A stretch of DNA of 64,000 nt from Deferribacteres bacterium (GTDB lineage: Bacteria > Zhuqueibacterota > Zhuqueibacteria > Zhuqueibacterales > Geothermadaptataceae): NCBI GenBank assembly GCA_020633655.1, contig JACKDF010000001.1:264700-328699 (forward strand), written 5' to 3'. A model generated the notes under the pieces. The model saw only the letters and a list, made by a program, of their open reading frames with translations, made no database searches and was not told the origin of the DNA. The position numbers and the translations under genes were made by a program. This document shows positions 3,631-62,378 of the stretch, in pieces (within the stretch, counting starts at the first letter, position 1; the number at the start of each line of letters is the position of its first letter).

Positions 3631-6537
3631 ATGCATAGAGGATTTTACGCACTCAAACATCAGAGATTAAGCATGCGCCATTTTTTTATACTGACGTTCA
3701 TTGCGTTATGCCTTCCGAGTTTTGCACTTGCCTGGCAAACACCGGAATGGCAGGATGGAACACCGGCTTTCACCAAAATTGATTCCAGCAGTTTTGTTGC
3801 CATCGGTTCAACCGTCACATTGCAAAGCATCAATACCACGAATTCTAATGCCAATACAATGCAACAAATTTTGACCGGTGGATTGGGTTATATCGACACC
3901 GTCGTCGTCGAAAACATTGATTTTCCCGTTGATTTTAATAAAGTTCCGATTCCCAATACGGACATTTACCTGGTAACCGATGCGAACAGACGGAAAGTAT
4001 ATGCAATAAATTCGGATCACCAGGCTGTCACCTCCTTTGGTTCTGATAAAGTTTCAGATCCAGCTTATTTATCAGCTCCTGTAAGAGCACGTGCTTTTGA
4101 TGGGAGTCCAATCGGCATGTTTAGCGGGATGCTGGTAACGGATGCTGGTAATGACAAAGTATTGATGTTCAACTATCTCGAGAGTAAGTTGGTTTGGACA
4201 TACGATTCGGGTTTGAATGAGCCAGCCGCAGCAATAACAGTGGTCGATAGTTCCCGTATCATAATTTGCGATAAAGGCAATTCGCGTATCGTATTTTTAA
4301 GCATGACCCCTGATACAGCAACTTTTCTGCGTTCAGGTGGAAACAGCATTTTATCAGAACCGGTTGACGTTGAATATCGTCCCGGGCAACTACTTGTCAC
4401 TGACAAATCGAAACATGCCGTATATATTTTACGCGAAACGGATTTTGGTATTATCCAGCAATTCGGCGTTGATGACGAAGCTGGTGCTGGTGCGACACAT
4501 TTGAATGAACCAGTTGATGCGCAATTTTTGACCAACGGTAATGTCCTTATCGCCGATGCAGGCAATAATCGCATTATCGAAGTCAACATGGCACTTGGTA
4601 CAATCGTTTGGGAATTCATTCCACGTATTCCGAAAATCCTTTCAGCAACCCGGCAATCGAATAATCAAATGTTAGTTGTCAGTGATCGAAATGTACTCAT
4701 CATGGGCTACAAAACTCGGGATTTCGAGCTGGGGGCTGCACGTGATTTGGGCAGAGAAGTCGACTTTGATTCACTTACATTCAACGCTGATCTTGAGGAT
4801 GGGACCACTATTCGTTTCCAAATGCGCACATCGCTTACCTTATCAGAATTAAATGTTGCTGAATGGCTGGGTCCGGACAGTACATCAAATACATGGTATG
4901 AAGAGGACAATACGAACCTTGCAAATGTGCACGATGGGAAAAGATTTTTCCAGCTGAAAGTTGAAATGGCGACGAACAGCCCCCTCAGCACGGCACGGCT
5001 CAATAATATCGCGGTGCATTATCACTATTTTGATACTGAAGCTGAGGGTCGCATCTTAACCGAGGTCATTGCAGATACTGCAGAAAACACGATCACCAGT
5101 TGGCAAAGATTGCGTGGCAAAACCATCCTGCCTGTCAATGCCGCTGATCGGGATGAAATCTCACTTGAAATTTTTATTGTTAATGCGGATAACAACGAAC
5201 CTGTTTACAATTTCAGGGTTGTGAATGTTGATACAATTTTTAATGAAGTATTAACCAATATCCCCACACTTGCTTCTGTTGGCCGAATTCGTCTTGAAGC
5301 AATTTTCAACACAAACAATACGGCTGTTGCCCCCATCCTTACGGAATGGTCTCTCGATTGGGAAACCGAAGCATCACTTGCTTCCAATATTCGGTTTGTT
5401 GACAAGCAAGGTACAAGTGACGTTGAGGTTGTACGGCTTAGCCCGGACATCGCTTTCGGTGAATCCAATGTTATTTTTGTCTTCCTGCAAGACCAAAATC
5501 TGGCGCTGCGATCCGTACCACGCATCAAAGTTGGTTTGCATGCTTTGCAAAGTGGTGATTTAGACTCGCTGCAATTAACAAGAAACGGTGTTTCAAATGA
5601 ATATATAACCAGCATCGGCATGCCAGGGGTCATTCGCGAAACTGCCGGTACCAATAATGGATTACTCGAACTCCACAACGGTGATACACTTGTTGTGCGT
5701 TATGTTGATCCGATAGATCCAAATGATGTTTCGACGGATTCTGTACTCGTCGTCCAAAGAACCCGTGCCATCCTGACCGTTGAAACACAAAATGGGCCCG
5801 TAAATACAGAAATCAATCAACGCATTCTTCCCTCTGACTCCCTGTATCTCCATGTCATTAATGAAGGAGACCATGATCTCTCTCCTGCACGGGATAGCAT
5901 CTATGCTGAAGTATTTGACAACACGACAAAAGACTTTGAAACCGTACTGCTTTATGAAGTGCCAAATCAAAATGATCCCAATGTATATCGCACAGGTATT
6001 TTTCATAGTCGAAGAGGCTTGGGTATCGCTACAAATCAAGGAACGCGAATCGAAAATGGCCGTCTGGAAACATTGCGTGGTGATTTATTTACAGCACAAT
6101 ACATCGATATTGACACAACGGATGTCTTCTTGTACATGCTTCCACCCGACACTTCCGAAGTCCCCGTTGATGGGCCAGGTGCTTTCAATTTATTATTCGC
6201 TCCCAATCCCTATAAATCGAATTCCGGCGAAACGATGCGCATGCGCATCGAAGCATATACTGGTAGCTTGACTCTGAATAAGATAGAAATTTATAACCTG
6301 GCTGGAGAGTTGGTGAAATCACTCGATGCCGGTGTTTTCGGATTGGACCATGGTGCAAGTATTACCAGCAAAACAAGATCGACGAGTTCTGGCAGATGGT
6401 GGGATTTTACAGACCAATATGGCAATCAAGTAAGCAGCGGTACCTATTTCGCACGACTGGTCGGGCGTTTTACCGATGAACTGACAATGCGAACGGAAGA
6501 TGTCACATTTCTCAGAAAATTCGTGATTGTGCGCTAA
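3631..6537 (+). CDS. large secreted NHL-repeat beta-propeller protein with T9SS/FlgD-Ig-like C-terminal domain
   Basis: A signal peptide is present (FFILTFIALCLPSFALA). There are at least four NHL-type blades: LVTDAGNDKVLMFN, IICDKGNSRIVFL, LVTDKSKHAVYIL and LIADAGNNRIIEVN. The C-terminal ~90 aa (FAPNPYKSNSGETMRM...IEIYNLAGELVKSL...SGTYFARLV) has the pattern of T9SS type-A sorting/FlgD-Ig domains. Confidence 0.75.
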   Translation: MHRGFYALKHQRLSMRHFFILTFIALCLPSFALAWQTPEWQDGTPAFTKIDSSSFVAIGSTVTLQSINTTNSNANTMQQILTGGLGYIDTVVVENIDFPVDFNKVPIPNTDIYLVTDANRRKVYAINSDHQAVTSFGSDKVSDPAYLSAPVRARAFDGSPIGMFSGMLVTDAGNDKVLMFNYLESKLVWTYDSGLNEPAAAITVVDSSRIIICDKGNSRIVFLSMTPDTATFLRSGGNSILSEPVDVEYRPGQLLVTDKSKHAVYILRETDFGIIQQFGVDDEAGAGATHLNEPVDAQFLTNGNVLIADAGNNRIIEVNMALGTIVWEFIPRIPKILSATRQSNNQMLVVSDRNVLIMGYKTRDFELGAARDLGREVDFDSLTFNADLEDGTTIRFQMRTSLTLSELNVAEWLGPDSTSNTWYEEDNTNLANVHDGKRFFQLKVEMATNSPLSTARLNNIAVHYHYFDTEAEGRILTEVIADTAENTITSWQRLRGKTILPVNAADRDEISLEIFIVNADNNEPVYNFRVVNVDTIFNEVLTNIPTLASVGRIRLEAIFNTNNTAVAPILTEWSLDWETEASLASNIRFVDKQGTSDVEVVRLSPDIAFGESNVIFVFLQDQNLALRSVPRIKVGLHALQSGDLDSLQLTRNGVSNEYITSIGMPGVIRETAGTNNGLLELHNGDTLVVRYVDPIDPNDVSTDSVLVVQRTRAILTVETQNGPVNTEINQRILPSDSLYLHVINEGDHDLSPARDSIYAEVFDNTTKDFETVLLYEVPNQNDPNVYRTGIFHSRRGLGIATNQGTRIENGRLETLRGDLFTAQYIDIDTTDVFLYMLPPDTSEVPVDGPGAFNLLFAPNPYKSNSGETMRMRIEAYTGSLTLNKIEIYNLAGELVKSLDAGVFGLDHGASITSKTRSTSSGRWWDFTDQYGNQVSSGTYFARLVGRFTDELTMRTEDVTFLRKFVIVR

Positions 6538-22593: not shown

Positions 22594-22620
22594 AAGCGAA
22601 AGAAGAGCCTGCCGAACCGG

Positions 22621-22709
22621 AATGAAGTGAAGAAGGCGGGCGGGATCCATGTGGCAAAGCTGCTCAACAGAAATCGGACCCATGGATTTCGCCTTCTGAT
22701 TCCTTCATT
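22621..22709. terminator. long imperfect hairpin between convergent glgP and phosphatase genes (possible bidirectional terminator)
   Basis: AATGAAGTGAAGAAGGCGGGCGGGATCCATG (22621-22651) is an imperfect reverse complement of CATGGATTTCGCCTTCTGATTCCTTCATT (22681-22709). The right arm overlaps the last codons and stop of the minus-strand gene. There is no clean U-tract. Confidence 0.4.
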
Positions 22710-24186
22710 GATTATTTAAATAAAACGGGTATTTCACCGACTTCAACGAATCATTTCCAACGAAAAATTTGATGTTTGCGGGAATCTGAAACACATCTGA
22801 TTCACTCAGACTCTCAACCGCATCGACAAAGAGTGTTTGCTCATCATTTTCCTCATATTGTCCGGTAATTACAGTGAAAATTTCCAAAGATGCGGGTTGT
22901 GCATCTTTTTCTGGCCGGACATGAATCCATTTTACCTGATTGCACGAAACACTCTGCAAGGTCCAGGGTTTATCATCATTGTTATCGCGCGGGTACGCAC
23001 CCCAACTTCCCTCACCAATAAACATCGTTCCTTTTTCATCATCCCGCACAAATCCCTGAAAACTCCCTTTCTCTGTGGAGGGCTTTAAGGGATAGGTGAT
23101 TTTGTGCATATGTGAGTCACCATCGAGGGAGATATTCAGGCCGTATTCATAAAACAAACCAGCCCATTGCTCATACTGATACTCGTTTTCGGGTTTCTTC
23201 TGCGTATGCGGGTGAAAAGGTTTGTGGTATCCGGCAATTTTAAAAACATCATTTCGGTGGGCACTTAAATCAGCTTCCAACCATTTTCGCTGATCACCTC
23301 CCTCATCCAGTTCCGAATTTAAGGCGATGATGTGAAAAAAATCGCCGCCGAACGTCAGAGAATAATAGACATTGTTCTCATTTGCATATTGAAAAGGGGA
23401 GGCAAAAATCCTGTGTAATACGGTCAAATTGCCATTCTCATGATTGCCGTGCACAGGTACTAAAGGAATCATGCGGCCGTCCGCGGTGGTTGTCAATTCA
23501 AACCAATCCGTCAGCCACTGTTGCCACCTGTCTGGATATGTCCCATCACCGCTGTTAAAATCACCGTTGAACATAACAAATAAAGGGCGAAGCCTGGCAA
23601 CCATTTTGTTCGAAGCACGCCCGGCTTCCAGTGGTTTACCGGAACTCTTCGTGTCCCCTCCGGCGATAAACGTGAAGGCTTTCGGTTTATCCGGCGCTGT
23701 ACGGAAATAATATCTGTCGCTTGTGCCCGTACAATCTTTAATGACAAAATAATATGTTGCATCCGGCTTCAAATTTTGCAGTTTTGCGTAGAATGTATTC
23801 ATGTTATAGTACAGCCATCTTTTGCTCTGTGGCGCCTGGCGCAATTTGTATTTCCAGTACTGGCGTCCGTGATCGGTCTCGCCATAGTAGACCGAAGCTT
23901 CATTACCTTTTAATTGATCCCAAATCACCGTCATTGTTGAGGTTGGATCGTCGGTCCACACAAGACGGTATTTGTTGGAGGCAGCGTGCTCATCGGAGGC
24001 ATTAGCAGCAAAAAGCGGATTTATGAAATAAAAAAGAAAGAATACTGAAAAAAATGGAACGCGAAAAAAAGGATTTATTCCAATATTTCGGTGGCGTTGG
24101 GATTGTTTATCGTTATTCCGGCAAGTATTTAGCCGGAATCCAATGAGACAAGAATAGAGTAATTGATGGATTCCATCTAAAAGCAT
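22705..24186 (-). CDS. purple-acid-phosphatase-like metallophosphoesterase (start uncertain)
   Basis: An FN3-like PAP N-domain (YRLVWTDDPTSTMTVIWDQ) is followed by the metallophosphatase blocks GGDTKSS, NGDFNSGDG, VHGNHENG, GYHKPFHP and GDSHMH. The hydrophobic signal-like segment FFSVFFLFYFINPLFAANA has no ATG/GTG/TTG just upstream of it. The nearest in-frame ATG (24186) and the track start (24291) both lie in or beyond repeat copy C. Confidence 0.8.
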   Translation of the reverse strand: MLLDGIHQLLYSCLIGFRLNTCRNNDKQSQRHRNIGINPFFRVPFFSVFFLFYFINPLFAANASDEHAASNKYRLVWTDDPTSTMTVIWDQLKGNEASVYYGETDHGRQYWKYKLRQAPQSKRWLYYNMNTFYAKLQNLKPDATYYFVIKDCTGTSDRYYFRTAPDKPKAFTFIAGGDTKSSGKPLEAGRASNKMVARLRPLFVMFNGDFNSGDGTYPDRWQQWLTDWFELTTTADGRMIPLVPVHGNHENGNLTVLHRIFASPFQYANENNVYYSLTFGGDFFHIIALNSELDEGGDQRKWLEADLSAHRNDVFKIAGYHKPFHPHTQKKPENEYQYEQWAGLFYEYGLNISLDGDSHMHKITYPLKPSTEKGSFQGFVRDDEKGTMFIGEGSWGAYPRDNNDDKPWTLQSVSCNQVKWIHVRPEKDAQPASLEIFTVITGQYEENDEQTLFVDAVESLSESDVFQIPANIKFFVGNDSLKSVKYPFYLNNQ

Positions 24187-24197
24187 GACGGAATGAC
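24113..24197 (-). repeat. repeat family copy C (shortened, ~85 bp)
   Basis: TTATTCCGGCAAGTATTTAGCCGGAATCCA...TAAAAGCATGACGGAATGAC shares its first ~33 nt and last ~20 nt with copy B (29510-29613) in the same orientation. The middle is deleted or diverged. Confidence 0.7.
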
Positions 24198-24305
24198 GCC
24201 ATCGTATACAAACTAAACGCTTATAATTTTTAATATTAGAACAGGTATTATATTTAAACACAAGTACTCCCGATTTACCAGTTCGACTCACTTCGATTTT
24301 TTTGA

Positions 24306-25313
24306 CTATAAATAGACAACTTCTCCGCTCTCGGCTGAGCGGTAAGCTGTATCAACGATGCGTTGTACCACAAGCCCTTCTTCAATGCCCGGATTCGGTG
24401 TCTTACGTTCCCGAATACACGCAACGAAATGTGCCATCTGCCGTGAGTACATTGGTTGGTCGCAGTGTTCGTCCTTTGGGCTCAAGCGCTTTACTTCCCG
24501 GCCTGCAAGACCCTCCAAAGGGGTCTCCACTGACGTTGGATAAAGACGGGCATAACCTTTCGTGCCAATCAGCTGTGTCGATGCTTCCGGGCCATCGGCA
24601 TGCGGGTGCCACCACCCGCTTTCGATGAGGGATACCGTCCCATTTTCCCAGCTGATCATGAGCATTCCCATGTCATCCACATCGTATTTTCCAAAGCAGG
24701 TTTTAAGAACGCCGTATACACTCACCGGTTGTGGATCGCCCAGAAGGAAACGTACGGTATCAATGGCGTGCACACCCATATCGGCTAATGCGCCTCCTCC
24801 TGCCAGTTTTTTTTGGGTAAACCAGCCCTGTGGTCCCCAATCGACGTGAATGCCACAGCCTTTGGTTTTGAGCACCTCACCTATTTCGCCAGCTGCAATC
24901 GCTGCGCGAACAAATCGCGTTTGCTCATCGAATCGCCACATGTGACCGATCATCACCAGACGATTGTTCTCCATCATTGTCTCTTTCAGCTGTTCCCCCT
25001 CTTCAGTGTTTATACCAAGAGGTTTCTCGATAAAAACATCCTTCCCCGCACGGACAAAATCGCTGGCAATTGGCACATGCAACGCATTCGGCAGGCACAG
25101 GATAACGGCATCGCAGGCATTCTCACGTATCAGATCACTGTGTTTTTCATAAACCTGCTTTATGTTGTAGATTTTAGCAAATTCCTGTGCCTTTTCAATT
25201 GCAGTATCACAGATGGCAGTAATTTCAACGTTTTCCTGCTCAAGCAGGCCTTTAACATGATAGTGGGCAATGAAACCAGCACCGATTACCGCTACTCGAA
25301 CTTTTGTCGGCAT
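24306..25313 (-). CDS. Gfo/Idh/MocA family NAD(P)-dependent oxidoreductase
   Basis: 335 aa. The N-terminal Rossmann motif is VRVAVIGAGFIAHYH, followed by EKPL and the C-terminal alpha/beta dimerisation domain typical of the family. Confidence 0.85.
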   Translation of the reverse strand: MPTKVRVAVIGAGFIAHYHVKGLLEQENVEITAICDTAIEKAQEFAKIYNIKQVYEKHSDLIRENACDAVILCLPNALHVPIASDFVRAGKDVFIEKPLGINTEEGEQLKETMMENNRLVMIGHMWRFDEQTRFVRAAIAAGEIGEVLKTKGCGIHVDWGPQGWFTQKKLAGGGALADMGVHAIDTVRFLLGDPQPVSVYGVLKTCFGKYDVDDMGMLMISWENGTVSLIESGWWHPHADGPEASTQLIGTKGYARLYPTSVETPLEGLAGREVKRLSPKDEHCDQPMYSRQMAHFVACIRERKTPNPGIEEGLVVQRIVDTAYRSAESGEVVYL

Positions 25314-25315
25314 TT

Positions 25316-26611
25316 TTAAACAACCTCCGGCAAAGTGATTAATTCATGGGTATGTTCCCTGATTTTTTCAATGGCTTGAACTATTTGATCCATTGCTTCC
25401 TGATTGTCCATCAAGACCAGGTGATGGAAACACACCGCCTGATCTGCAAATACTTTTTCACAAACGGGAAGTGATGCCCGATCGGGGTCGATCTTTTGCC
25501 AATATTCCCGGCCTAAATTGTGACGAGCTGGTTTTGTATGGGGACGATAAAGGGAACAATTATTTAGAGGTTCGTAGCATGACTCGATGGTGCAACCTAA
25601 TTCTGCTTCCAACGCCTGGCGAAATTTACTCGCAGGCAGCCCGTCAAAAGCATCGCAATTGTAACGAAACGAGTAATTAAAAAATGCCTTTTTTGTCTCC
25701 CGCGGATCATGGTACATGGGCTCAATGCCGGAGACATCGGCAAGTAAATTATTTAGATAGGCCGCATTTTTTTCACGCACATCCGTTTGTTCAGGCAAGC
25801 GTCGCAAGCCTTCGATGAGCAGAGAGGCTTGAAAATCGGTGATACGAAAATTTCCTGATTGAATAAAATTCCCATCATCACCATAAACTCCGGCACCCTT
25901 ATCAGCCTCTGCGTTCTCGTTTTCCGGACGACGGCCACAATTCCGCAAGGCATCTAATTTTTCCGCCAATTCATCGGAGCTTGTGGTGAGCGCACCACCT
26001 TCACCTGCGGTCATCGTTTTGGAAAGTTGAAAGCTGAAGCTGCCGATATCACCGATCGAACCGGCTTTTTTGCCATTCCACTCACCACCGTGTTTATGGG
26101 CGCAATCTTCAATGATTATCAATTCATGTTCTTCCGCGATTGCCTTGATCGCATCCATATCCGCCATGCAACCATAGAGATGCACAGGAATAATGGCTTT
26201 CGTTCGAGGTGTAATGTTTTTACGAATTTCCTCTGGACTAATGCACCAGGTACGTTCATCCACATCCGTGAGAATCGGGGTTGCATTCACATCGAGAACC
26301 GCCGCAGCCGTTGCCTGCCAGGTCAATCCCGGAACGATGACTTCATCGCCGACACCGATTCCACAGGCTTCCAAAGCCAGTTGCAAGGTCACGGTGCCAT
26401 TCGCAGCACAGATGGCGTATTTACTTCCGATGTAAGCTGCAAATTTTTTATTGAACTCGATTTCCTTTGGGCCATTGTACGACCAAACACCGCTGTGCAA
26501 CACTTCCAGCAAAGCGCGTTCTTCCGCCTGATCCCACACAGGCCATTTGGGCCAGGGATTTTTCTTTTTATCGCGAATGGGAGTTCCACCTGTGATGGCT
26601 AGCTTTTTCAT
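25316..26611 (-). CDS. DegT/DnrJ/EryC1/StrS-family PLP aminotransferase (long, StsC/scyllo-inosose-aminotransferase-like form)
   Basis: 431 aa with ICAANGTVTLQLAL, the VIVPGLTW block, and the SFQLSK PLP-lysine motif followed by AGEGGA. It ends 2 nt before the oxidoreductase gene. Confidence 0.85.
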   Translation of the reverse strand: MKKLAITGGTPIRDKKKNPWPKWPVWDQAEERALLEVLHSGVWSYNGPKEIEFNKKFAAYIGSKYAICAANGTVTLQLALEACGIGVGDEVIVPGLTWQATAAAVLDVNATPILTDVDERTWCISPEEIRKNITPRTKAIIPVHLYGCMADMDAIKAIAEEHELIIIEDCAHKHGGEWNGKKAGSIGDIGSFSFQLSKTMTAGEGGALTTSSDELAEKLDALRNCGRRPENENAEADKGAGVYGDDGNFIQSGNFRITDFQASLLIEGLRRLPEQTDVREKNAAYLNNLLADVSGIEPMYHDPRETKKAFFNYSFRYNCDAFDGLPASKFRQALEAELGCTIESCYEPLNNCSLYRPHTKPARHNLGREYWQKIDPDRASLPVCEKVFADQAVCFHHLVLMDNQEAMDQIVQAIEKIREHTHELITLPEVV

Positions 26612-26763
26612 GTTGTTATCTCCTTTTTTCTATAGTGCCCACAAGGGGAAAAGCTACAGATGGTTGTAAACTTAAAACCTGTAGCTCAGGCCTTTGTGGC
26701 CTGCCAAAACCTTGTATTTTTTCTATTTTACATATAATTTTCGGCTACTATTCAGCCTTTGGA

Positions 26764-26867
26764 TCATTCCGGAATGCTTTTATCCGAGCCAAAGACCGGC
26801 GAAGCACAATCCATCAATGATTGAGGCTACCAGAAATGGATTCCGGCTAAAAAATTGCCGGAATGAC
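26764..26867 (+). repeat. repeat family copy A (104 bp, forward)
   Basis: TCATTCCGGAATGCTTTTATCCGAGCCAAAGACCGG...GGATTCCGGCTAAAAAATTGCCGGAATGAC. It has terminal inverted repeats TCATTCCGG/CCGGAATGA and an internal 8-bp hairpin ATTCCGGC-N9-GCCGGAAT. By my eye alignment there are about 12 mismatches over 104 nt to the reverse complement of copy B. Confidence 0.85.
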
Positions 26868-26898
26868 TAAAAACAAGGCATTTCCTGATAGATTCTCA

Positions 26899-29463
26899 TC
26901 AATCTAAATTCCAGCCATTGAGCGCAATTATGGGATCAACCCTTCCGATTGCATGGCGAGGAAAACTCACTCTCACTTTACGTGATTCGCCAGGGAGCAA
27001 ACTAATGTAATTATCACTCCAGTTCGAGGGCAGCACATGGGTATCTGAGCTGGGATCGATCACAATGAATTCATTAAAAAATGCAAGAATTTCACTGTGA
27101 TTGGTTATTTCAACGCTCATTTCTATGTCGTGCTCACCTGCACTCATTTCTGCGTCAACGTCCAGACTTGTTTTGGGCATTTTGTTTAAATCATGAAAAT
27201 TAGCATAGGATTTTGTCGGTGTATAAAAGGCCCAATCGTCAAATTTCGCACCGTAATTCAGGACGTCCGGCGTTGGAGCCAGCCAATAAAAATTGTGATG
27301 CAATTCATCGCAATCCGCATCGAGCAACCTCAAATCAAGAAAGATCAGTTTATTCGGACGTTTTAAGCGAAAGACTCGGGTTGTTCCACTTTTTGGTTTA
27401 ATCCGCACCGTTTCTTCAAGTAGCAGCTGTGAGGCCGTATCATATTGTCGAATCCAGGCAATCTTTGGCGTGTTATTTTGTGCATATTCATCAACAAAAT
27501 ATACATCGCCATCCCCGTAATTGTATGCGAGTTTTTGGGGCGTGCACCCCTTTTTTGCGCCATAAAAAGCCCCGTTCGGCCGAAGGTACTGATCATACAA
27601 TTGCCATGAAGTTTTTGGCCAGGCGGCATTGAGCATCCACTGGATTATGCCTGTCGCCCGCGGGTGATTGATTTGAAATGCCTCGAACATGGGGCGCATG
27701 AGTTCATAATTGAGAACTTGTGCTTTGAACGCGAAATCTTCCGCAGATTCCGCAGTGCCATATCGCTTTGCAATGGCCTCAACGATGCGATCGAGGGTGG
27801 CAAAGGCGTTACGACCACCATGGAAATCCCACGCACTGTTCATCGGCCATAAATTTTCTTCACTCAGCATCTTTCGCAAGCTGTCGATTGGTGGCACATT
27901 CGCACCCGGACAGGTTTCACTGTTAAATCCATAGGCGCCACCGAGTCGTTTATCGGTGTACCAATATACTGGCGGCGTGTAGGCATAAGGCCCGAGCATT
28001 TTCAAGCCGGAGGAGCCGGTAATATCGCTTTCGATAACCGTGCTGGTGACAATAGCCTGCTCGCTGCCGACACCACCCGTGGAATTCAACGAAGGACGCG
28101 TTGGATCACATGATTTTAAAATTTCAATGTAGCGGGATTCAAGATCAGGGTGCGGCACCATGTCACTGGCAAGGGTCCAGCAAAAAATTGCCGGGTGGTT
28201 GCGCAACCAAAGTACCTGGTCCCGGAAAGATTTGGCAATCAGGTCAATTTCCTCCGGTTCAGTCACACCGCCAAAACGAATATCGATAGGTTTTCCCAGG
28301 TATTGCTCATGTTCCCAATGGCAGCTCCAACCAACCATCATGAGAATGCCATTTTGATCGCAAAGATCGTAAAGTTTGTGATCCTTCCCCCAAAAACCTT
28401 CCAGACGAATACAATTCAGGTTCAAATCTTTGACATAACGAATCTGCGCCGCAAGCGATTTGTCATCATCCAGCAGGAATAAATCATCCGTCCAGCCACC
28501 ACCTTTGATCAGGGTTTCTCTTCCATTGACCGCAAATACCCGGTTGCCTTCTGCATTCAGCCAGGACTCGATTTTTCGCATTCCAAACTGCACAGACTGA
28601 GAATCAGAAACACCGCTTTCCGTTTCTACCGACAAGTTCAGCTTATAAAGTGCCGGTTCCCCAAGATTATTTGGCCACCATAATCGTGGATTTTCAATTT
28701 GCAACTGAGGAAATTCCTTATGCGACAGAATAACATCCAGACTTTGGTTCGGAAGCAACTCAATGGATTTACAGACATTTATTCCGTCAACATCGATACA
28801 CAAATCACATTTTGTCTTTTCCGACGTATGATTTTCAAGTGTGGCATTGATCTGCAGGCGCACAAGCGAAAAATCATCATGAAACGCAGTGTCCACAAAG
28901 GGATGTTCGAGCTTAATTCCACCAAAATGATGCACCTGGATTGGACGAAAAATCCCCATATTTTTATCGGGAGAAGGCGGATTCCAATCGACGAATCCAA
29001 TACTGAAATCACCTGCTTGTGGCGGGGATATTTTTATGGCAAGGACATTTTTTCCAATAGTCAGTTCTTTCGCGATATCAAACTGCCAACGGCGGAATGC
29101 ACCGACACATTCCTGATCCGATGCTATCTGTTTTCCATTCAACCAGATTTCCGCACGGTAATTAACACCATCCAATTCAAGGTCGGCAAAATTCATGTCA
29201 CCGGCCTGTGCGGTTTCGAACTCCGTGCGAAACCACCACGGTTCAGCAAACATCATTTCTGGAATCTGTGCCAGATTTTTATCGCGAAACGGTTCTTTAA
29301 TGACACCCAGTTTTACCAATGCGCCAAGAACAGTTCCCGGCACAAGTGCTTCGTACCACGAGCTGGTATCACTTCCCGGAATGGATAATGCCTGCGGTGT
29401 TAGCGTAATTTTCGAGGCTGGCTGCATACGCCAGCCGTCGTTTAGTTGAATTCGATTTTTCAT
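26899..29463 (-). CDS. glycoside hydrolase family 2 protein (exo-beta-glucosaminidase/beta-mannosidase-like)
   Basis: 854 aa. It has a GH2-style N-terminal sugar-binding domain (DGVNYRAEIWLNGKQI), Ig-like linkers and a TIM-barrel block NLNCIRLEGFWGKDHKLYDLCDQNGILMMVGW. I see no obvious signal peptide. Confidence 0.75.
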   Translation of the reverse strand: MKNRIQLNDGWRMQPASKITLTPQALSIPGSDTSSWYEALVPGTVLGALVKLGVIKEPFRDKNLAQIPEMMFAEPWWFRTEFETAQAGDMNFADLELDGVNYRAEIWLNGKQIASDQECVGAFRRWQFDIAKELTIGKNVLAIKISPPQAGDFSIGFVDWNPPSPDKNMGIFRPIQVHHFGGIKLEHPFVDTAFHDDFSLVRLQINATLENHTSEKTKCDLCIDVDGINVCKSIELLPNQSLDVILSHKEFPQLQIENPRLWWPNNLGEPALYKLNLSVETESGVSDSQSVQFGMRKIESWLNAEGNRVFAVNGRETLIKGGGWTDDLFLLDDDKSLAAQIRYVKDLNLNCIRLEGFWGKDHKLYDLCDQNGILMMVGWSCHWEHEQYLGKPIDIRFGGVTEPEEIDLIAKSFRDQVLWLRNHPAIFCWTLASDMVPHPDLESRYIEILKSCDPTRPSLNSTGGVGSEQAIVTSTVIESDITGSSGLKMLGPYAYTPPVYWYTDKRLGGAYGFNSETCPGANVPPIDSLRKMLSEENLWPMNSAWDFHGGRNAFATLDRIVEAIAKRYGTAESAEDFAFKAQVLNYELMRPMFEAFQINHPRATGIIQWMLNAAWPKTSWQLYDQYLRPNGAFYGAKKGCTPQKLAYNYGDGDVYFVDEYAQNNTPKIAWIRQYDTASQLLLEETVRIKPKSGTTRVFRLKRPNKLIFLDLRLLDADCDELHHNFYWLAPTPDVLNYGAKFDDWAFYTPTKSYANFHDLNKMPKTSLDVDAEMSAGEHDIEMSVEITNHSEILAFFNEFIVIDPSSDTHVLPSNWSDNYISLLPGESRKVRVSFPRHAIGRVDPIIALNGWNLD

Positions 29464-29509
29464 TTACCTCATCTCGTGGTGGTTTGAAAAGCAATCCACT
29501 CAGTGGGAC

Positions 29510-29613
29510 GTCATTCCGGCAAGTTTTTAGCCGGAATCCATTTAATGTAGCCTCAACCAATCGTGGATTTTGCTTCACCGGCTTTTGGCTCGGATAAAAG
29601 CATTCCGGAATGA
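29510..29613 (-). repeat. repeat family copy B (104 bp, inverted relative to copy A)
   Basis: GTCATTCCGGCAAGTTTTTAGCCGGAATCCATTTAATGTAGCCTCAACC...AAAAGCATTCCGGAATGA. The reverse complement aligns end to end with copy A. Confidence 0.85.
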
Positions 29614-29641
29614 AAAAAAACAAAGCACTTCCTAATGCACT

Positions 29642-30805
29642 CTATTTCACATCCATTGCCACATGTTTTATACTTTTTTTATCTTTGTGCCACGAATAAG
29701 AGAGATGGATTCTCCCATTTGCAGCCTGAATCATCGCGGGATAGGCGAAGCTCCCTTTTCCTTTTTCGGCTTCCTCTAGTACAATTTTCTGCTGCCAGTT
29801 TGCACCATCGTCCACAGAGAAAGCGATTGTTAAGTTATTACGGCCATTTTCTGTGTTATTGTAAACCAAACACCAGCTTCCATCCCGAAGCACGAGGCCG
29901 GTTACACTTGCACCCGGATTGGGGATATCTGTATCGGTGGCGGGTGTCCAGTTTAAACCATCGTCGTCAGAATGGCTTACCATGATTCGTCCAGGTGGGT
30001 CCCCATTGTCACGCATGTAAGCTACCAGCGCTCCGGATTTTTTTCGCAAAATGACTGGCTGCACATTTCCTTTGCCAACTATTGGCGCTGAGGGAAACCA
30101 GGTTTGCCCGTTATCATCAGAAATGGCCACGAGCGATAAATTGTATCCATCGGAATAGAGTGGCAATAAAATACGCCCGGTTGGCAGAAATGTCGGCGCG
30201 ATGCGGGTCATCCATCCGGTTTCACGCCTTGTGGGATCGGCAGCAGCTTCAACTAACATTTTTTCATATTTTGGTGCGTAGGCGGCCCATGCAAGGTCTT
30301 TGTATGGTAGAGATTTAAATCCTTTTTCGATACTCGTTTGAAAAGAATCGGTATTTTTCATAAAGAGGACATCTTGCCATTGCCAAATTGGAGTGCCAGC
30401 ATTCATGTAATTTTCAGAAATTCGGTACTTCAATACAGATGTTTCCCAGCGGTTCGCAACAACAACCATCCACATAAGCACCAAACGTTGCTCGTGATCG
30501 AGATATAAAATTGGATTGCAGTCGGGATAGTCCGGCGTATCCGCCATTTCAAAAACTTCACTCCATTCGTGCTGCCCTTTTTTAAGCCGTGCCCCGCGAA
30601 TGCGCACATCATCGGCGCTGCGTTCGCCGGAGCCTTCGAACCAGCACGCCAATAAACTGCCATCGGGACATTCTACAATGCTGCTGCTGTGCACATGTTT
30701 TTCCTGGGGAGGGAAAATGAGTTCGGAATTGCTTATGATCTGTGCGTTTAAAAGCGGAAGTTTAAAAAAGAGAAAAAAAAGAAGAAACGAGAATTTTGTA
30801 TTCAT
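29642..30805 (-). CDS. BNR/Asp-box repeat sialidase-family (exo-alpha-sialidase-like) secreted protein
   Basis: Signal peptide MNTKFSFLLFFLFFKLPLLNAQ, taken from the ATG at 30805. Three Asp-boxes are present: SDDNGQTW, SDDDGLNW and SVDDGANW. The N-terminal block HSSSIVECPDGSLLACWFEGSGE is typical of BNR_2 sialidase-like proteins. The substrate cannot be inferred. Confidence 0.75.
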   Translation of the reverse strand: MNTKFSFLLFFLFFKLPLLNAQIISNSELIFPPQEKHVHSSSIVECPDGSLLACWFEGSGERSADDVRIRGARLKKGQHEWSEVFEMADTPDYPDCNPILYLDHEQRLVLMWMVVVANRWETSVLKYRISENYMNAGTPIWQWQDVLFMKNTDSFQTSIEKGFKSLPYKDLAWAAYAPKYEKMLVEAAADPTRRETGWMTRIAPTFLPTGRILLPLYSDGYNLSLVAISDDNGQTWFPSAPIVGKGNVQPVILRKKSGALVAYMRDNGDPPGRIMVSHSDDDGLNWTPATDTDIPNPGASVTGLVLRDGSWCLVYNNTENGRNNLTIAFSVDDGANWQQKIVLEEAEKGKGSFAYPAMIQAANGRIHLSYSWHKDKKSIKHVAMDVK

Positions 30806-30920
30806 ATTTCCATAAGATTCCAAGAAATAATCAACACGCAATAATCAACAAACAATTTCCAATGTTCAAGTCTTTTAAACCTGGAAATTGTAAATTGAGT
30901 GTTGATTATTGGATATTGCT

Positions 30921-30955
30921 TTTCAAAATGGATCAGGGGATATCCCCTGATCCAT
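30921..30955 (-). terminator. rho-independent terminator (28-bp perfect palindrome + TTTG)
   Basis: ATGGATCAGGGGATATCCCCTGATCCAT (30928-30955) is a perfect palindrome. On the minus strand it lies 17 nt after the stop of gene 30972..32129 and is followed by TTTGAAA. Confidence 0.7.
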
Positions 30956-61337: not shown

Positions 61338-62378
61338 TTACCCTTCCACCCGCACCAAATGCGCATTTAAGCGTTCGACTTTTTCACGGTTGCCGAGCAC
61401 GATAAGCACATTGCCGTGTTCGATTTTGGTATCGGACTGGGGATTGTAAATGTACTGCGCCTTGCCGCCAATGGTCTTTTTAATAGCAATGACAATGAGC
61501 CCCGTGCGTTGGGGGATCTCGATTTGGCGCAGTGTCTTGCCCTCGAAACTGGTGTTTTCCGGTACAGTGACTTCCTCCATCCGCAGCTCGAATTCTGCAT
61601 CGTGCATCATTACATCGAGAAAACCGACAAGGTTGGGACGCAGTACCGTTGCAGCCATGCGCATGCCTTCGGTCAGGTTCGGGGACACGACATTGTTGGC
61701 ACCAGCCTTATACATTTTTCCGGCCGTATGCTGATCCACCGACCGGGAAATGATGTTCAGTCCGTGGTTGAGATTGCGAGCCGAGATCACCACAAACAAG
61801 TTATCGCGGTCCTCGGAAAGGGCACTGATTAAACCACGGGCATTTTCAACGCCCGCCTCGAGCAAAACCTCATCCTTCGTTGCATCGCCGGCAACAAAGA
61901 GCATGTGCGGATATTGTTCATGCAAGCTCGAAATCACTTCCTCACTTTGCTCGATTACAATGAGCGGCTCGCGTGCAATTTGAAATTCATTAATAATCGT
62001 TTTTCCCGTATCCCCTGCTCCGCAAAGAATAACATGGTTTTTCTGCCGTTGAATTTTGTTCTTCATTTTTTTGGATTTAAAATTCATAATCAATTCGCGA
62101 CGCACGAAAATACTGGTTACGCTGGCCGAGAGCAATGCGATGAGCACCAATCCGGTGAGTACAATAAACATGGTAAAGAGCTGGCCTGTTGGGTGCAATT
62201 GCCTTACTTCGTGAAAACCCACTGTCGAGAAGGTGATAAACGTCATGTAAAGCGCTTCAAACCAACTCCAGTCCTCAAGAATTGTATACCCCACCATGCC
62301 AACAAGCAAAAGCAGGATTAATCCCACCAATACCAGAATTAAATTTGTCCAGCTTGGATGCTGGATAGGCTCATTCAT
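61338..62378 (-). CDS. 2-TM ion channel with RCK (TrkA-N/TrkA-C) domains, atypical pore signature
   Basis: The order is TM1, a pore helix with filter FITFSTVGFHEV, TM2, a Rossmann block (VILCGAGDTGKTI) and a TrkA-C block. This is an MthK-like layout. The filter reads TVGFHE instead of TVGYGD/TVGFGE. Confidence 0.8.
   Translation of the reverse strand: MNEPIQHPSWTNLILVLVGLILLLLVGMVGYTILEDWSWFEALYMTFITFSTVGFHEVRQLHPTGQLFTMFIVLTGLVLIALLSASVTSIFVRRELIMNFKSKKMKNKIQRQKNHVILCGAGDTGKTIINEFQIAREPLIVIEQSEEVISSLHEQYPHMLFVAGDATKDEVLLEAGVENARGLISALSEDRDNLFVVISARNLNHGLNIISRSVDQHTAGKMYKAGANNVVSPNLTEGMRMAATVLRPNLVGFLDVMMHDAEFELRMEEVTVPENTSFEGKTLRQIEIPQRTGLIVIAIKKTIGGKAQYIYNPQSDTKIEHGNVLIVLGNREKVERLNAHLVRVEG

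Follow-up and report, generated by a model that had tools for sequence, protein, structure and literature searches.

Do two inverted copies of a short hairpin-bearing repeat around a single gene mark a segment of DNA that can flip or move, or are they members of a dispersed repeat family? This question is raised by a stretch of 64,000 nucleotides (contig JACKDF010000001.1, positions 264,700 to 328,699, of the assembly GCA_020633655.1, deposited as Deferribacteres bacterium), hereafter called the window, with all coordinates counted from its first letter. In this window the repeats A (26764-26867) and B (29510-29613) stand on either side of a gene for a glycoside hydrolase of family 2 (GH2), and a third copy, C, is found at 24111-24198. 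A, B and C are members of the CGTC-tagged superfamily of repetitive extragenic palindromic (REP) sequences, also called Ssn-related motifs (SRM). The locus as a whole is probably explained by head-to-head pairs of such units, which Ssn nucleases would recognize as hairpins in single-stranded DNA (ssDNA), A and B being gene-less derivatives that were copied into the gaps between genes. The CGTC REP/SRM kind and the SRM-ssn-SRM architecture are already known; the host phylum and the long-loop variant are new.

Architecture of the repeats and their family

A and B are reverse complements of each other from end to end, as a preliminary description of this locus had stated. They are 88% complementary over 104 nt, with 2642 nt between them, and BLASTN aligned them at 88.5% identity over 104 nt (E 1.6e-27), the longest identical runs being 30 and 20 nt. 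The first 32 nt of B are 94% common to C, and its last ~19 nt are shared as well. The core TTCCGGC-N7-11-GCCGGAATCC was found three times in the window against 0.00 expected, and in none of 100 shuffles. BLASTN, an nhmmer profile of 114 family units and a loose hairpin detector revealed no further copy within the 64-kb window, as had been supposed, and no copy was present in the ~6 kb past the window ends that are covered by near-identical public contigs (~4 kb and 1.9 kb). Rfam searches of the window at gathering thresholds gave no match. A speF leader (RF00518) reported at 26841-26954 (+) at relaxed thresholds was rejected, as it reached 21.5 bits against a cut-off of 37 and lay on the non-transcribed strand. 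A literature string search for TCATTCCGGC returned just unrelated primer-type matches.

Each copy consists of two palindromic units of ~32 nt in inverted orientation, with their tags facing outward and a spacer of 23-24 nt between them. The layout of a unit is CGTC, ATTCCGGC, a 9-nt loop, GCCGGAAT and CCA; the perfect stem formed by ATTCCGGC and GCCGGAAT measures 8 bp and not the 10 bp first described. The intact unit of B (29509-29540, plus strand; nhmmer E 1.4e-12) reads CGTC, ATTCCGGC, loop AAGTTTTTA, GCCGGAAT, CCA and is followed by a 23-nt spacer (29541-29563, plus strand) and by the inverted second unit (29564-29613, minus strand), which carries ~20 extra nt and reads TCATTCCGGAATGCTTTTATCCG...AATCCA on the minus strand. 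Alignment of this second unit to the family consensus needs gaps of ~20 nt, and nhmmer detected its first ~19 nt alone (E 0.3). In A, the intact unit (26837-26868, minus strand; nhmmer E 2.4e-11) reads AGTC, ATTCCGGC, loop AATTTTTTA, GCCGGAAT, CCA; the 23-nt spacer TTTCTGGTAGCCTCAATCATTGA occupies 26814-26836 (minus strand) and the second unit (26764-26813, plus strand) holds the same ~20-nt insertion as that of B. The left unit of C (24111-24142, plus strand; nhmmer E 1.2e-9) has a CGTT tag, a perfect 8-bp stem, the loop AAGTATTTA and CCA, and is separated by a 24-nt spacer (24143-24166, plus strand) from the right unit CGTCATTCCGTCATGCTTTTAGATGGAATCCA (24167-24198, minus strand; nhmmer E 0.0026). 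In the stem of the right unit one pair is altered on both sides (G-C to T-A) and another is G.T on the minus strand; this stem has one mismatch, against none in the stems of A, B and C left. The CCA tail after stem and 9-nt loop is present in all four intact units, and the tag is CGTC in B left and C right, with the one-base variants AGTC in A and CGTT in C left.

This anatomy revises the description of C as a shortened version of the repeat: C is a structurally intact pair, and it is A and B that hold ~20 extra nt in their second unit. Since A and B share this derived insertion, they are to be seen as copies of one 104-nt pair made after the insertion had arisen, and the 104-nt pair, rather than the single unit, was what was duplicated. 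The terminal inverted repeats ascribed to each copy are present in A and B, where TCATTCCGG is carried at both ends of either copy, and are imperfect in C (CGTT...; ...ACGGAATGACG).

The CGTC-tagged REP superfamily comprises the families CGTC-1 to CGTC-4 (Di Nocera, De Gregorio, Rocco 2013, BMC Genomics 14:522; PMC3733652) and includes the Neisseria dRS3/NTS and the Rickettsia RPE-4 and RPE-6 repeats. Its units are characterized by a CGTC/TGTC tag (variant CCTC), a stem of 8-9 bp starting with A-T/T-A, a loop of 4-5 nt and a CCA tail, and they occur mainly as head-to-head pairs 20-100 bp apart between unidirectional or convergent open reading frames (ORFs) (PMC3733652). The name SRM was introduced by Chenal et al. 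2025 (Nat Commun 16:2388; PMC11893778). A, B and C agree with the superfamily in the tag, the stem (8 bp, A-T/T-A first), the CCA tail, the pair layout and the position relative to ORFs. With CGTC-1 to CGTC-4 they share the tag, the 8-bp stem, the CCA tail, pairs with outward tags and the lack of a neighbouring transposase, as well as the location between unidirectional ORFs, near the upstream stop, with occasional coding overlap; CGTC repeats were reported from five phyla (PMC3733652), whereas the present unit was found under at least 12 phylum labels (see below). The earlier reading of the copies as REP-like or as miniature inverted-repeat transposable elements (MITEs) is thus upheld and refined to head-to-head pairs of CGTC-tagged REP (SRM) units.

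The published SRM pattern, HGTCWYN(0-2)YYVSBRHN(0-5)WNVSBRGN(0-2)RNCYNB, matched A at 26836-26868 (minus strand) and B at 29509-29541 (plus strand), with a total of three matches in the window, where 0.12 would be expected. The third of them, TGTCATTACCAGCATCCGTTACCAGCATCCCG at 4125-4156 (minus strand), lies inside a 968-aa ORF (3631-6537); it had no family signal when searched with the profile and probably fits the pattern by chance.

The 9-nt-loop unit in other genomes and its link to Ssn nucleases

Genomes, one per species, were scanned with ATTCCGGC-N8-10-GCCGGAATCCA, and at least 119 loci were obtained, under at least 12 phylum-level host labels and with a GC content of 35-68%. Among the matches listed, the hosts include cultured Nocardia, Dasania, Undibacterium and Desulforhabdus; by group they are Syntrophobacteraceae and other Desulfobacterota, Desulfuromonadales, Nitrospirota, Gamma- and Betaproteobacteria and Nocardia, as well as Elusimicrobiota, Omnitrophota, Ignavibacteria, Calditrichaceae, Bacteroidota and Myxococcales. 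The three tag positions were G, T and C in 112, 110 and 111 of 114 distinct units, respectively, although the GTC tag lies outside the search pattern. The loop was also conserved among the family units from the matches listed. An inverted partner was present within 130 nt of 59 of the 132 units, and many partners of 9-nt-loop units elsewhere have loops of 4-5 nt. Only 10% of the units lie deep inside long ORFs, compared with 65% of random positions.

The covariation test of the hairpin that had been proposed for this repeat was run across genomes, with tag, tail and spacing as the sole criteria for choosing partner units. The partner stems were 97.5% paired, and changes on both sides of a pair were found in 35 cells against 10.2 in shuffles (none of 500 as high); when the partner was shifted by one column, pairing dropped to 37-54%. 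This covariation of the stem indicates that the hairpin itself is under selection.

When 2903 ORFs from the at least 119 loci were clustered all-against-all, no recurrent transposase was found near the unit. The sole recurrent neighbours, at 14 loci among the matches listed, were sigma-54 response regulators, a recurrence compatible with their abundance in those taxa. A sigma-54 promoter in the loop (GGCATG-N4-TAGC, -24/-12-like by eye) was considered and rejected, because GC is preceded by A or G and not by T and because the unit is abundant in Nocardia, which is not known to have sigma-54.

The unit was also seen on short contigs of archaeal-labelled metagenome-assembled genomes (MAGs; L020, L034, L064, L093 Bathyarchaeota, L103 Heimdallarchaeota), where mis-binning may be involved, and on five IMG/VR viral or proviral contigs (L136-L141), one of which carries five copies. 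In L080 (Smithella sp. M82), units are interleaved with arrays of a GTAGGGATTGTTCCCCGAACAATCCGTAAAG-like repeat, forming a mosaic cluster.

A connection to a known enzyme is provided by genes nested between the units. A 96-aa GIY-YIG gene (PF01541) was found exactly between two 9-nt-loop units in four different genomic contexts (L104, L142-151, L152-157 and L158-159). The first case was L104; among the at least 119 scanned loci, one alone carries a GIY-YIG gene. The L104 protein has at least 7987 homologues at E<1e-10, out of 8000 candidates scored, many of them on contigs of <2 kb, and three homologues of 80-85% identity were taken for locus lookup (the P0150, P0135 and P0140 sets). In every locus returned, the nested 96-aa gene begins 11 nt past a unit. 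In L104 and in the P0150 and P0135 sets, an inverted unit begins 2 nt past the stop codon; the downstream unit of the P0140 set (L152-157), recognized by eye only, starts with TTGATTCC and not with TGGATTCC.

In L142-L146 the SRM-ssn-SRM unit lies amid 5-6 more units and adjoins a diversity-generating retroelement (bAvd and reverse transcriptase). Downstream of the GIY-YIG gene in L153 (3292-3350) and in L158/L159 (3292-3370), a 3' half-unit (e.g. GGAGAGAAGACTGCCGGAATGAC) is tandemly duplicated one to three times, and the differing number of duplicates between near-identical contigs suggests ongoing local rearrangement.

The same arrangement is known from Neisseria, where the NTS (CGTCATTCCCGCGMAVGCGGGAATCYRG, an extended dRS3) and other SRMs flank ssnA genes (PMC11893778). 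SsnA is a single-domain GIY-YIG protein of 94 aa that binds the motif as ssDNA only and cuts it a few nt upstream. Neither the reverse strand nor double-stranded DNA (dsDNA) or RNA is a substrate, and the three bases preceding the palindrome are critical, as is the C that follows it (PMC11893778). In N. meningitidis the system reduces transformation by NTS-bearing DNA; 42-71% of Ssn homologues are motif-flanked, binding and cutting have been demonstrated for the Neisseria and Wolbachia pairs, and an origin as mobile element has been proposed as a hypothesis only (PMC11893778). Comparison of B (CGTCATTCCGGCAAGTTTTTAGCCGGAATCCAT) with the Neisseria NTS revealed the same CGTC, an 8-bp palindrome starting with AT and a CCA/CYRG tail. 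The 9-nt-loop subfamily flanks a gene of ~96 aa for a GIY-YIG protein in the manner of NTS-ssnA-NTS, and in both systems the units are largely extragenic and clustered around genes. The two differ in the loop (9 nt here, 4 there), in the host, which here is candidate division KSB1, unmentioned in the text of Chenal et al. 2025 (PMC11893778), and in that the 64-kb window contains no ssn gene and three decayed pairs, whereas Neisseria has hundreds. The role in Neisseria, limiting the uptake of incoming ssDNA by transformation, is not transferable to the KSB1 host.

The nested GIY-YIG gene also bears on the possibility that the elements are REPINs mobilized by a RAYT (Y1 HUH) enzyme, or MITEs mobilized by a DDE transposase, and are not Ssn-related. 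REPINs and BIMEs are GTAG-tagged REPs with RAYT transposases (Bertels and Rainey 2011; Nunvar 2010; Ton-Hoang 2012, as cited in later work). Their pair architecture is the same as here: an inverted pair of units is the apparent unit of duplication, the enzyme gene is bracketed, as in the REPtron, and recognition of ssDNA hairpins is the proposed basis. No target-site duplications or direct repeats were found flanking A, B or C, a feature shared with IS200/IS605-type elements, and Di Nocera et al. did not decide on an enzyme that would form or move CGTC repeats, if there is one, other transposases included (PMC3733652). However, the tag is CGTC and not GTAG, the associated enzyme is a GIY-YIG nuclease and not an HUH Y1 transposase, no Y1_Tnp or DDE gene is present in the window, and the lack of a recurrent transposase at the scanned loci agrees with published surveys, in which CGTC repeats were not associated with transposase genes (PMC3733652). 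Unlike for REPINs, transposition has not been demonstrated for the CGTC/Ssn system. Together with the GIY-YIG gene nested exactly between units of the subfamily, these differences make an origin from RAYT or DDE enzymes very improbable.

In the explanation that we favour, i.e., Ssn-recognized CGTC/SRM pairs, each unit would fold into a hairpin whenever replication, repair or DNA uptake exposes it as a single strand. By analogy with SsnA, a single-domain GIY-YIG nuclease of the Ssn family would recognize this hairpin together with the unpaired tag and tail and would nick the strand a few nt 5' of the tag, leaving dsDNA and RNA untouched. The full-length form of the subfamily would be an element of ~370 bp in which two units bracket the 96-aa GIY-YIG gene, and A and B would be internal-deletion derivatives that lost the gene and kept ~23 nt of its 3' end. 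The 104-nt pair would then have been copied into two gaps of a row of glycan-utilisation genes in a KSB1 bacterium; after copying, A and B would have diverged to 88% and their second units decayed. The bracketing of GH2 would be a by-product of landing in adjacent intergenic gaps. We infer by analogy that an Ssn enzyme is present in this genome and cuts these copies, and we likewise infer the way in which the copies spread.

The derivation from a gene-bearing form is suggested by the spacer of A, which over its full length can be aligned to the final 25 nt of the SRM-ssn-SRM interior of L142 with 18 matches, a score equalled by none of 1000 shuffles and by 2 of 279 windows of the L142 interior. 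The spacer is thus probably what is left of the final codons of an ssn (GIY-YIG) gene. With this likeness, A and B resemble gene-less derivatives, as MITEs are of insertion sequences (IS); the alignment is suggestive of, but does not prove, an internal deletion from the full-length unit.

Several observations weigh against this explanation. The loop measures 9 nt in all four intact units, compared with 4-5 nt in CGTC-1 to CGTC-4, exceptions in loop length being known from Bradyrhizobium, K. olearia and M. prima (PMC3733652). Only two of the six units fit the SRM pattern, as the units of C and the interrupted units of A and B fail it; the non-fitting units are mutated or interrupted, and the elements may be inactive fossils, the low number of fitting units being what old, inactive copies would show. 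The likeness of the spacer to ssn was strong for one of four reference genes; it was weak for the spacer of B (shuffle p 0.016 against L142), and the spacer of C gave no significant signal against ssn genes. No GIY-YIG or ssn gene was found in the 64-kb window (best tblastn E 0.5; Pfam scans of ORFs empty), and the partner enzyme may be absent from the genome. Other 104-nt copies of the A/B type were sought with a 20-mer of the interrupted unit in metagenome contigs of the Joint Genome Institute (JGI), with two unrelated chance matches as the result, and a 42-aa peptide read through B had no match among proteins; as the A/B type was seen twice only, it is from two copies that a spread of the whole pair is deduced. 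How such repeats spread is unproven even in Neisseria.

A further point that the favoured explanation leaves without account is a 28-nt flank on the same strand of both A and B. The flank of A, AAAAACAAGGCATTTCCTGATAGATTCT (26869-26896, plus strand), lies between A and the GH2 stop codon, and that of B, AAAAACAAAGCACTTCCTAATGCACTCT (29616-29643, plus strand), between B and the stop codon of a BNR-repeat gene. In register, 22 of 28 positions are identical, a score reached by none of 300 shuffles, and the 21-nt core of the flank has two matches in the window against 0.05 expected. The plus-strand motif of ~21 nt noticed earlier after A and B is therefore real, and longer than described. Other flank pairs were similar at chance level only, and the 16-nt core AAACAARGCAYTTCCT was absent from the 140 other loci examined. 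Because A and B have opposite orientations, it is the intact unit that the flank adjoins in A, but the interrupted one in B. It is possible that a longer unit was duplicated and the pair then flipped through its own terminal repeats; also possible are the insertion of a nearly symmetric element by either strand at a preferred site, and local gene conversion. The comparison rests on the two copies A and B, which do not discriminate between the three origins.

One extension would take in the flank and the wide distribution alike. SRM-ssn-SRM might be an autonomous mobile element based on the GIY-YIG enzyme, which would mobilize gene-less A/B-like pairs in trans; repeated horizontal spread would then account for the near-identical 33-nt unit in hosts of 35-68% GC and at least 12 phylum labels, and the 28-nt flank would be a preferred landing site just after stop codons, used by either strand of the nearly symmetric element. 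We regard this extension as conceivable but rather doubtful. If true, SRM-ssn-SRM would be a counterpart of RAYT/REPIN built on a different enzyme fold. The observations that go beyond published work are the presence of Ssn/SRM in candidate division KSB1, a 9-nt-loop unit that is almost invariant across very different bacteria and stands, in contexts unrelated to each other, at fixed distances on both sides of the nuclease gene, and a gene-less pair that keeps the apparent last codons of this gene. The fixed-distance bracketing and the spacer remnant support, without proving, an origin of CGTC-type REPs as mobile elements.

Gene order around the repeats and in relatives

All three copies lie within a row of minus-strand genes. 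In the order of transcription, the row begins with a TonB-dependent receptor, two genes without significant Pfam domain, a type-IX-secreted protein and a BNR-repeat protein (29642-30841), and continues with B, GH2 (26899-29463), A, a DegT-type aminotransferase (25316-26611), a Gfo/Idh/MocA oxidoreductase (24306-25313), C and a purple-acid-phosphatase-like gene (22705-24186). The GH2 gene, which lies on the minus strand outside the elements, encodes an exo-beta-D-glucosaminidase-like protein (Pfam Glyco_hydro_2, Ig_GlcNase).

The geometry of A and B, 104-nt inverted repeats 2642 nt apart around one gene, fits the arms of an invertible segment or of a composite transposon that moves or flips GH2, as the preliminary description had suggested, and identical runs of 30 and 20 nt could allow rare RecA-dependent inversion. 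In the two closest available genomes (L123 and L126; labelled Calditrichaeota, with GH2 63% identical), neither the order of the genes nor the orientation of GH2 differs from the window, and no copy of the repeat family was found at their orthologous loci; in L123 GH2 and DegT overlap, leaving no gap for A. The repeat-free orthologous loci imply that the copies are lineage-specific additions, and the overlap in L123 together with the conserved order implies that GH2 was not brought by the repeats. An independent contig, from the MAG GCA_020431365.1, matches the window at 99.96% identity and keeps the same junction at A. A single orientation was thus seen in the window, in the MAG contig and in the repeat-free orthologous loci. 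Moreover, the arms are merely 88% identical, the third copy C lies outside the supposed segment, target-site duplications are lacking, and the Pfam analysis of the 45 ORFs of the window revealed no recombinase, integrase, invertase or transposase (Y1_Tnp and DDE included). With phase-variable segments and composite transposons the locus therefore shares inverted repeats around one gene, i.e., the geometry only, and differs in the missing recombinase, the diverged arms, the ancestral gene order and the missing target-site duplications. The conserved order without repeats and the lack of a recombinase in the window leave the invertible or composite reading unsupported, and we consider it extremely improbable. 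An apparent gene switch is here an ordinary repeat family, and GH2 should not be annotated as phase-variable.

The corresponding gaps in the relatives hold other elements. In the gap between the BNR gene and GH2, L123 (8990-9030, 9620-9660, 9900-9950) and L126 (9915-9975) carry a different palindromic repeat, TATAGAGCGAAAGCGTCCCGCTGAGCGGAATG-like, which in L123 brackets a 183-aa ORF without Pfam match; L123 also has an IS (DDE_Tnp_1) in the gap equivalent to the position of C. The same intergenic slots thus gather different small mobile or repeat elements in different lineages.

The copies had been described as confined to intergenic gaps. This is so for A and B and not for C, whose span includes the start codon ATG annotated for the phosphatase gene at 24186. 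The ATG (24186-24184) lies in the loop of the right unit of C and is the sole canonical in-frame start upstream of the signal-peptide region; it is not preceded by a Shine-Dalgarno sequence. The public MAG annotation starts the phosphatase here, giving a product of 493 aa, and the reading frame traverses the entire element C. Homology to the L123 orthologue begins ~45 codons past this ATG. Gene callers put start codons inside these repeats, the phosphatase gene being an example.

Identical proteins (24306-25313, 61338-62378 and 202-1395) have been deposited both as Deferribacteres bacterium (GCA_020431365.1) and as candidate division KSB1 bacterium; one of the two labels is likely wrong.

Possible roles at the RNA level

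The position and folding of the copies also invite the view that the hairpins are primarily RNA elements, such as terminators, attenuators or 3'-end stabilisers, that set how strongly the BNR, GH2, DegT/GFO and phosphatase genes are expressed relative to one another. The distance from the preceding co-directional stop codon to the start of the copy is 30 nt for A, 28 nt for B and 107 nt for C; REPs are generally located downstream of ORFs and are thought to be transcribed (PMC3733652). The whole elements fold stably, at -29 to -44 kcal/mol, A and C having z-scores of ~-3.4 to -4.8, and the right unit of C is fully paired on the transcribed strand only, via one G.U. However, the folding of B is unexceptional (z -1.6), and no U-tract follows the hairpins on the mRNA strand, i.e., the minus strand, where a T-run stands before and not after the hairpins of A and B. 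The terminator scan gave nothing at A or B and 14 sites in the window against 10.8 expected. The 33-nt unit occurs in unrelated contexts across many phyla, which argues that it did not evolve for this operon, the orthologous operons work without the elements, and the characterized partner enzyme is specific for ssDNA and does not bind RNA. A primary role of this kind is hence improbable, and the terminator-stabiliser function originally attributed to the copies is not shown; a side effect on mRNA stability is possible.

Two other hairpins in the window are distinct from the repeat family. The region 22617-22708 was evaluated as a fourth copy and rejected, as it is a separate long hairpin in which the family signal is absent. 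This hairpin (22620-22709), in the intergenic space on which the phosphorylase and phosphatase genes converge, folds at -41.2 kcal/mol (z -2.6, plus strand) and holds CCGGAATGA, yet it showed no family signal in the profile search. An unrelated hairpin at 30829-30921, in the gap between the type-IX and BNR genes, has 43-nt arms that are 77% complementary and 7 nt apart, and folds at -37.4 kcal/mol (z -5.9, mRNA strand).

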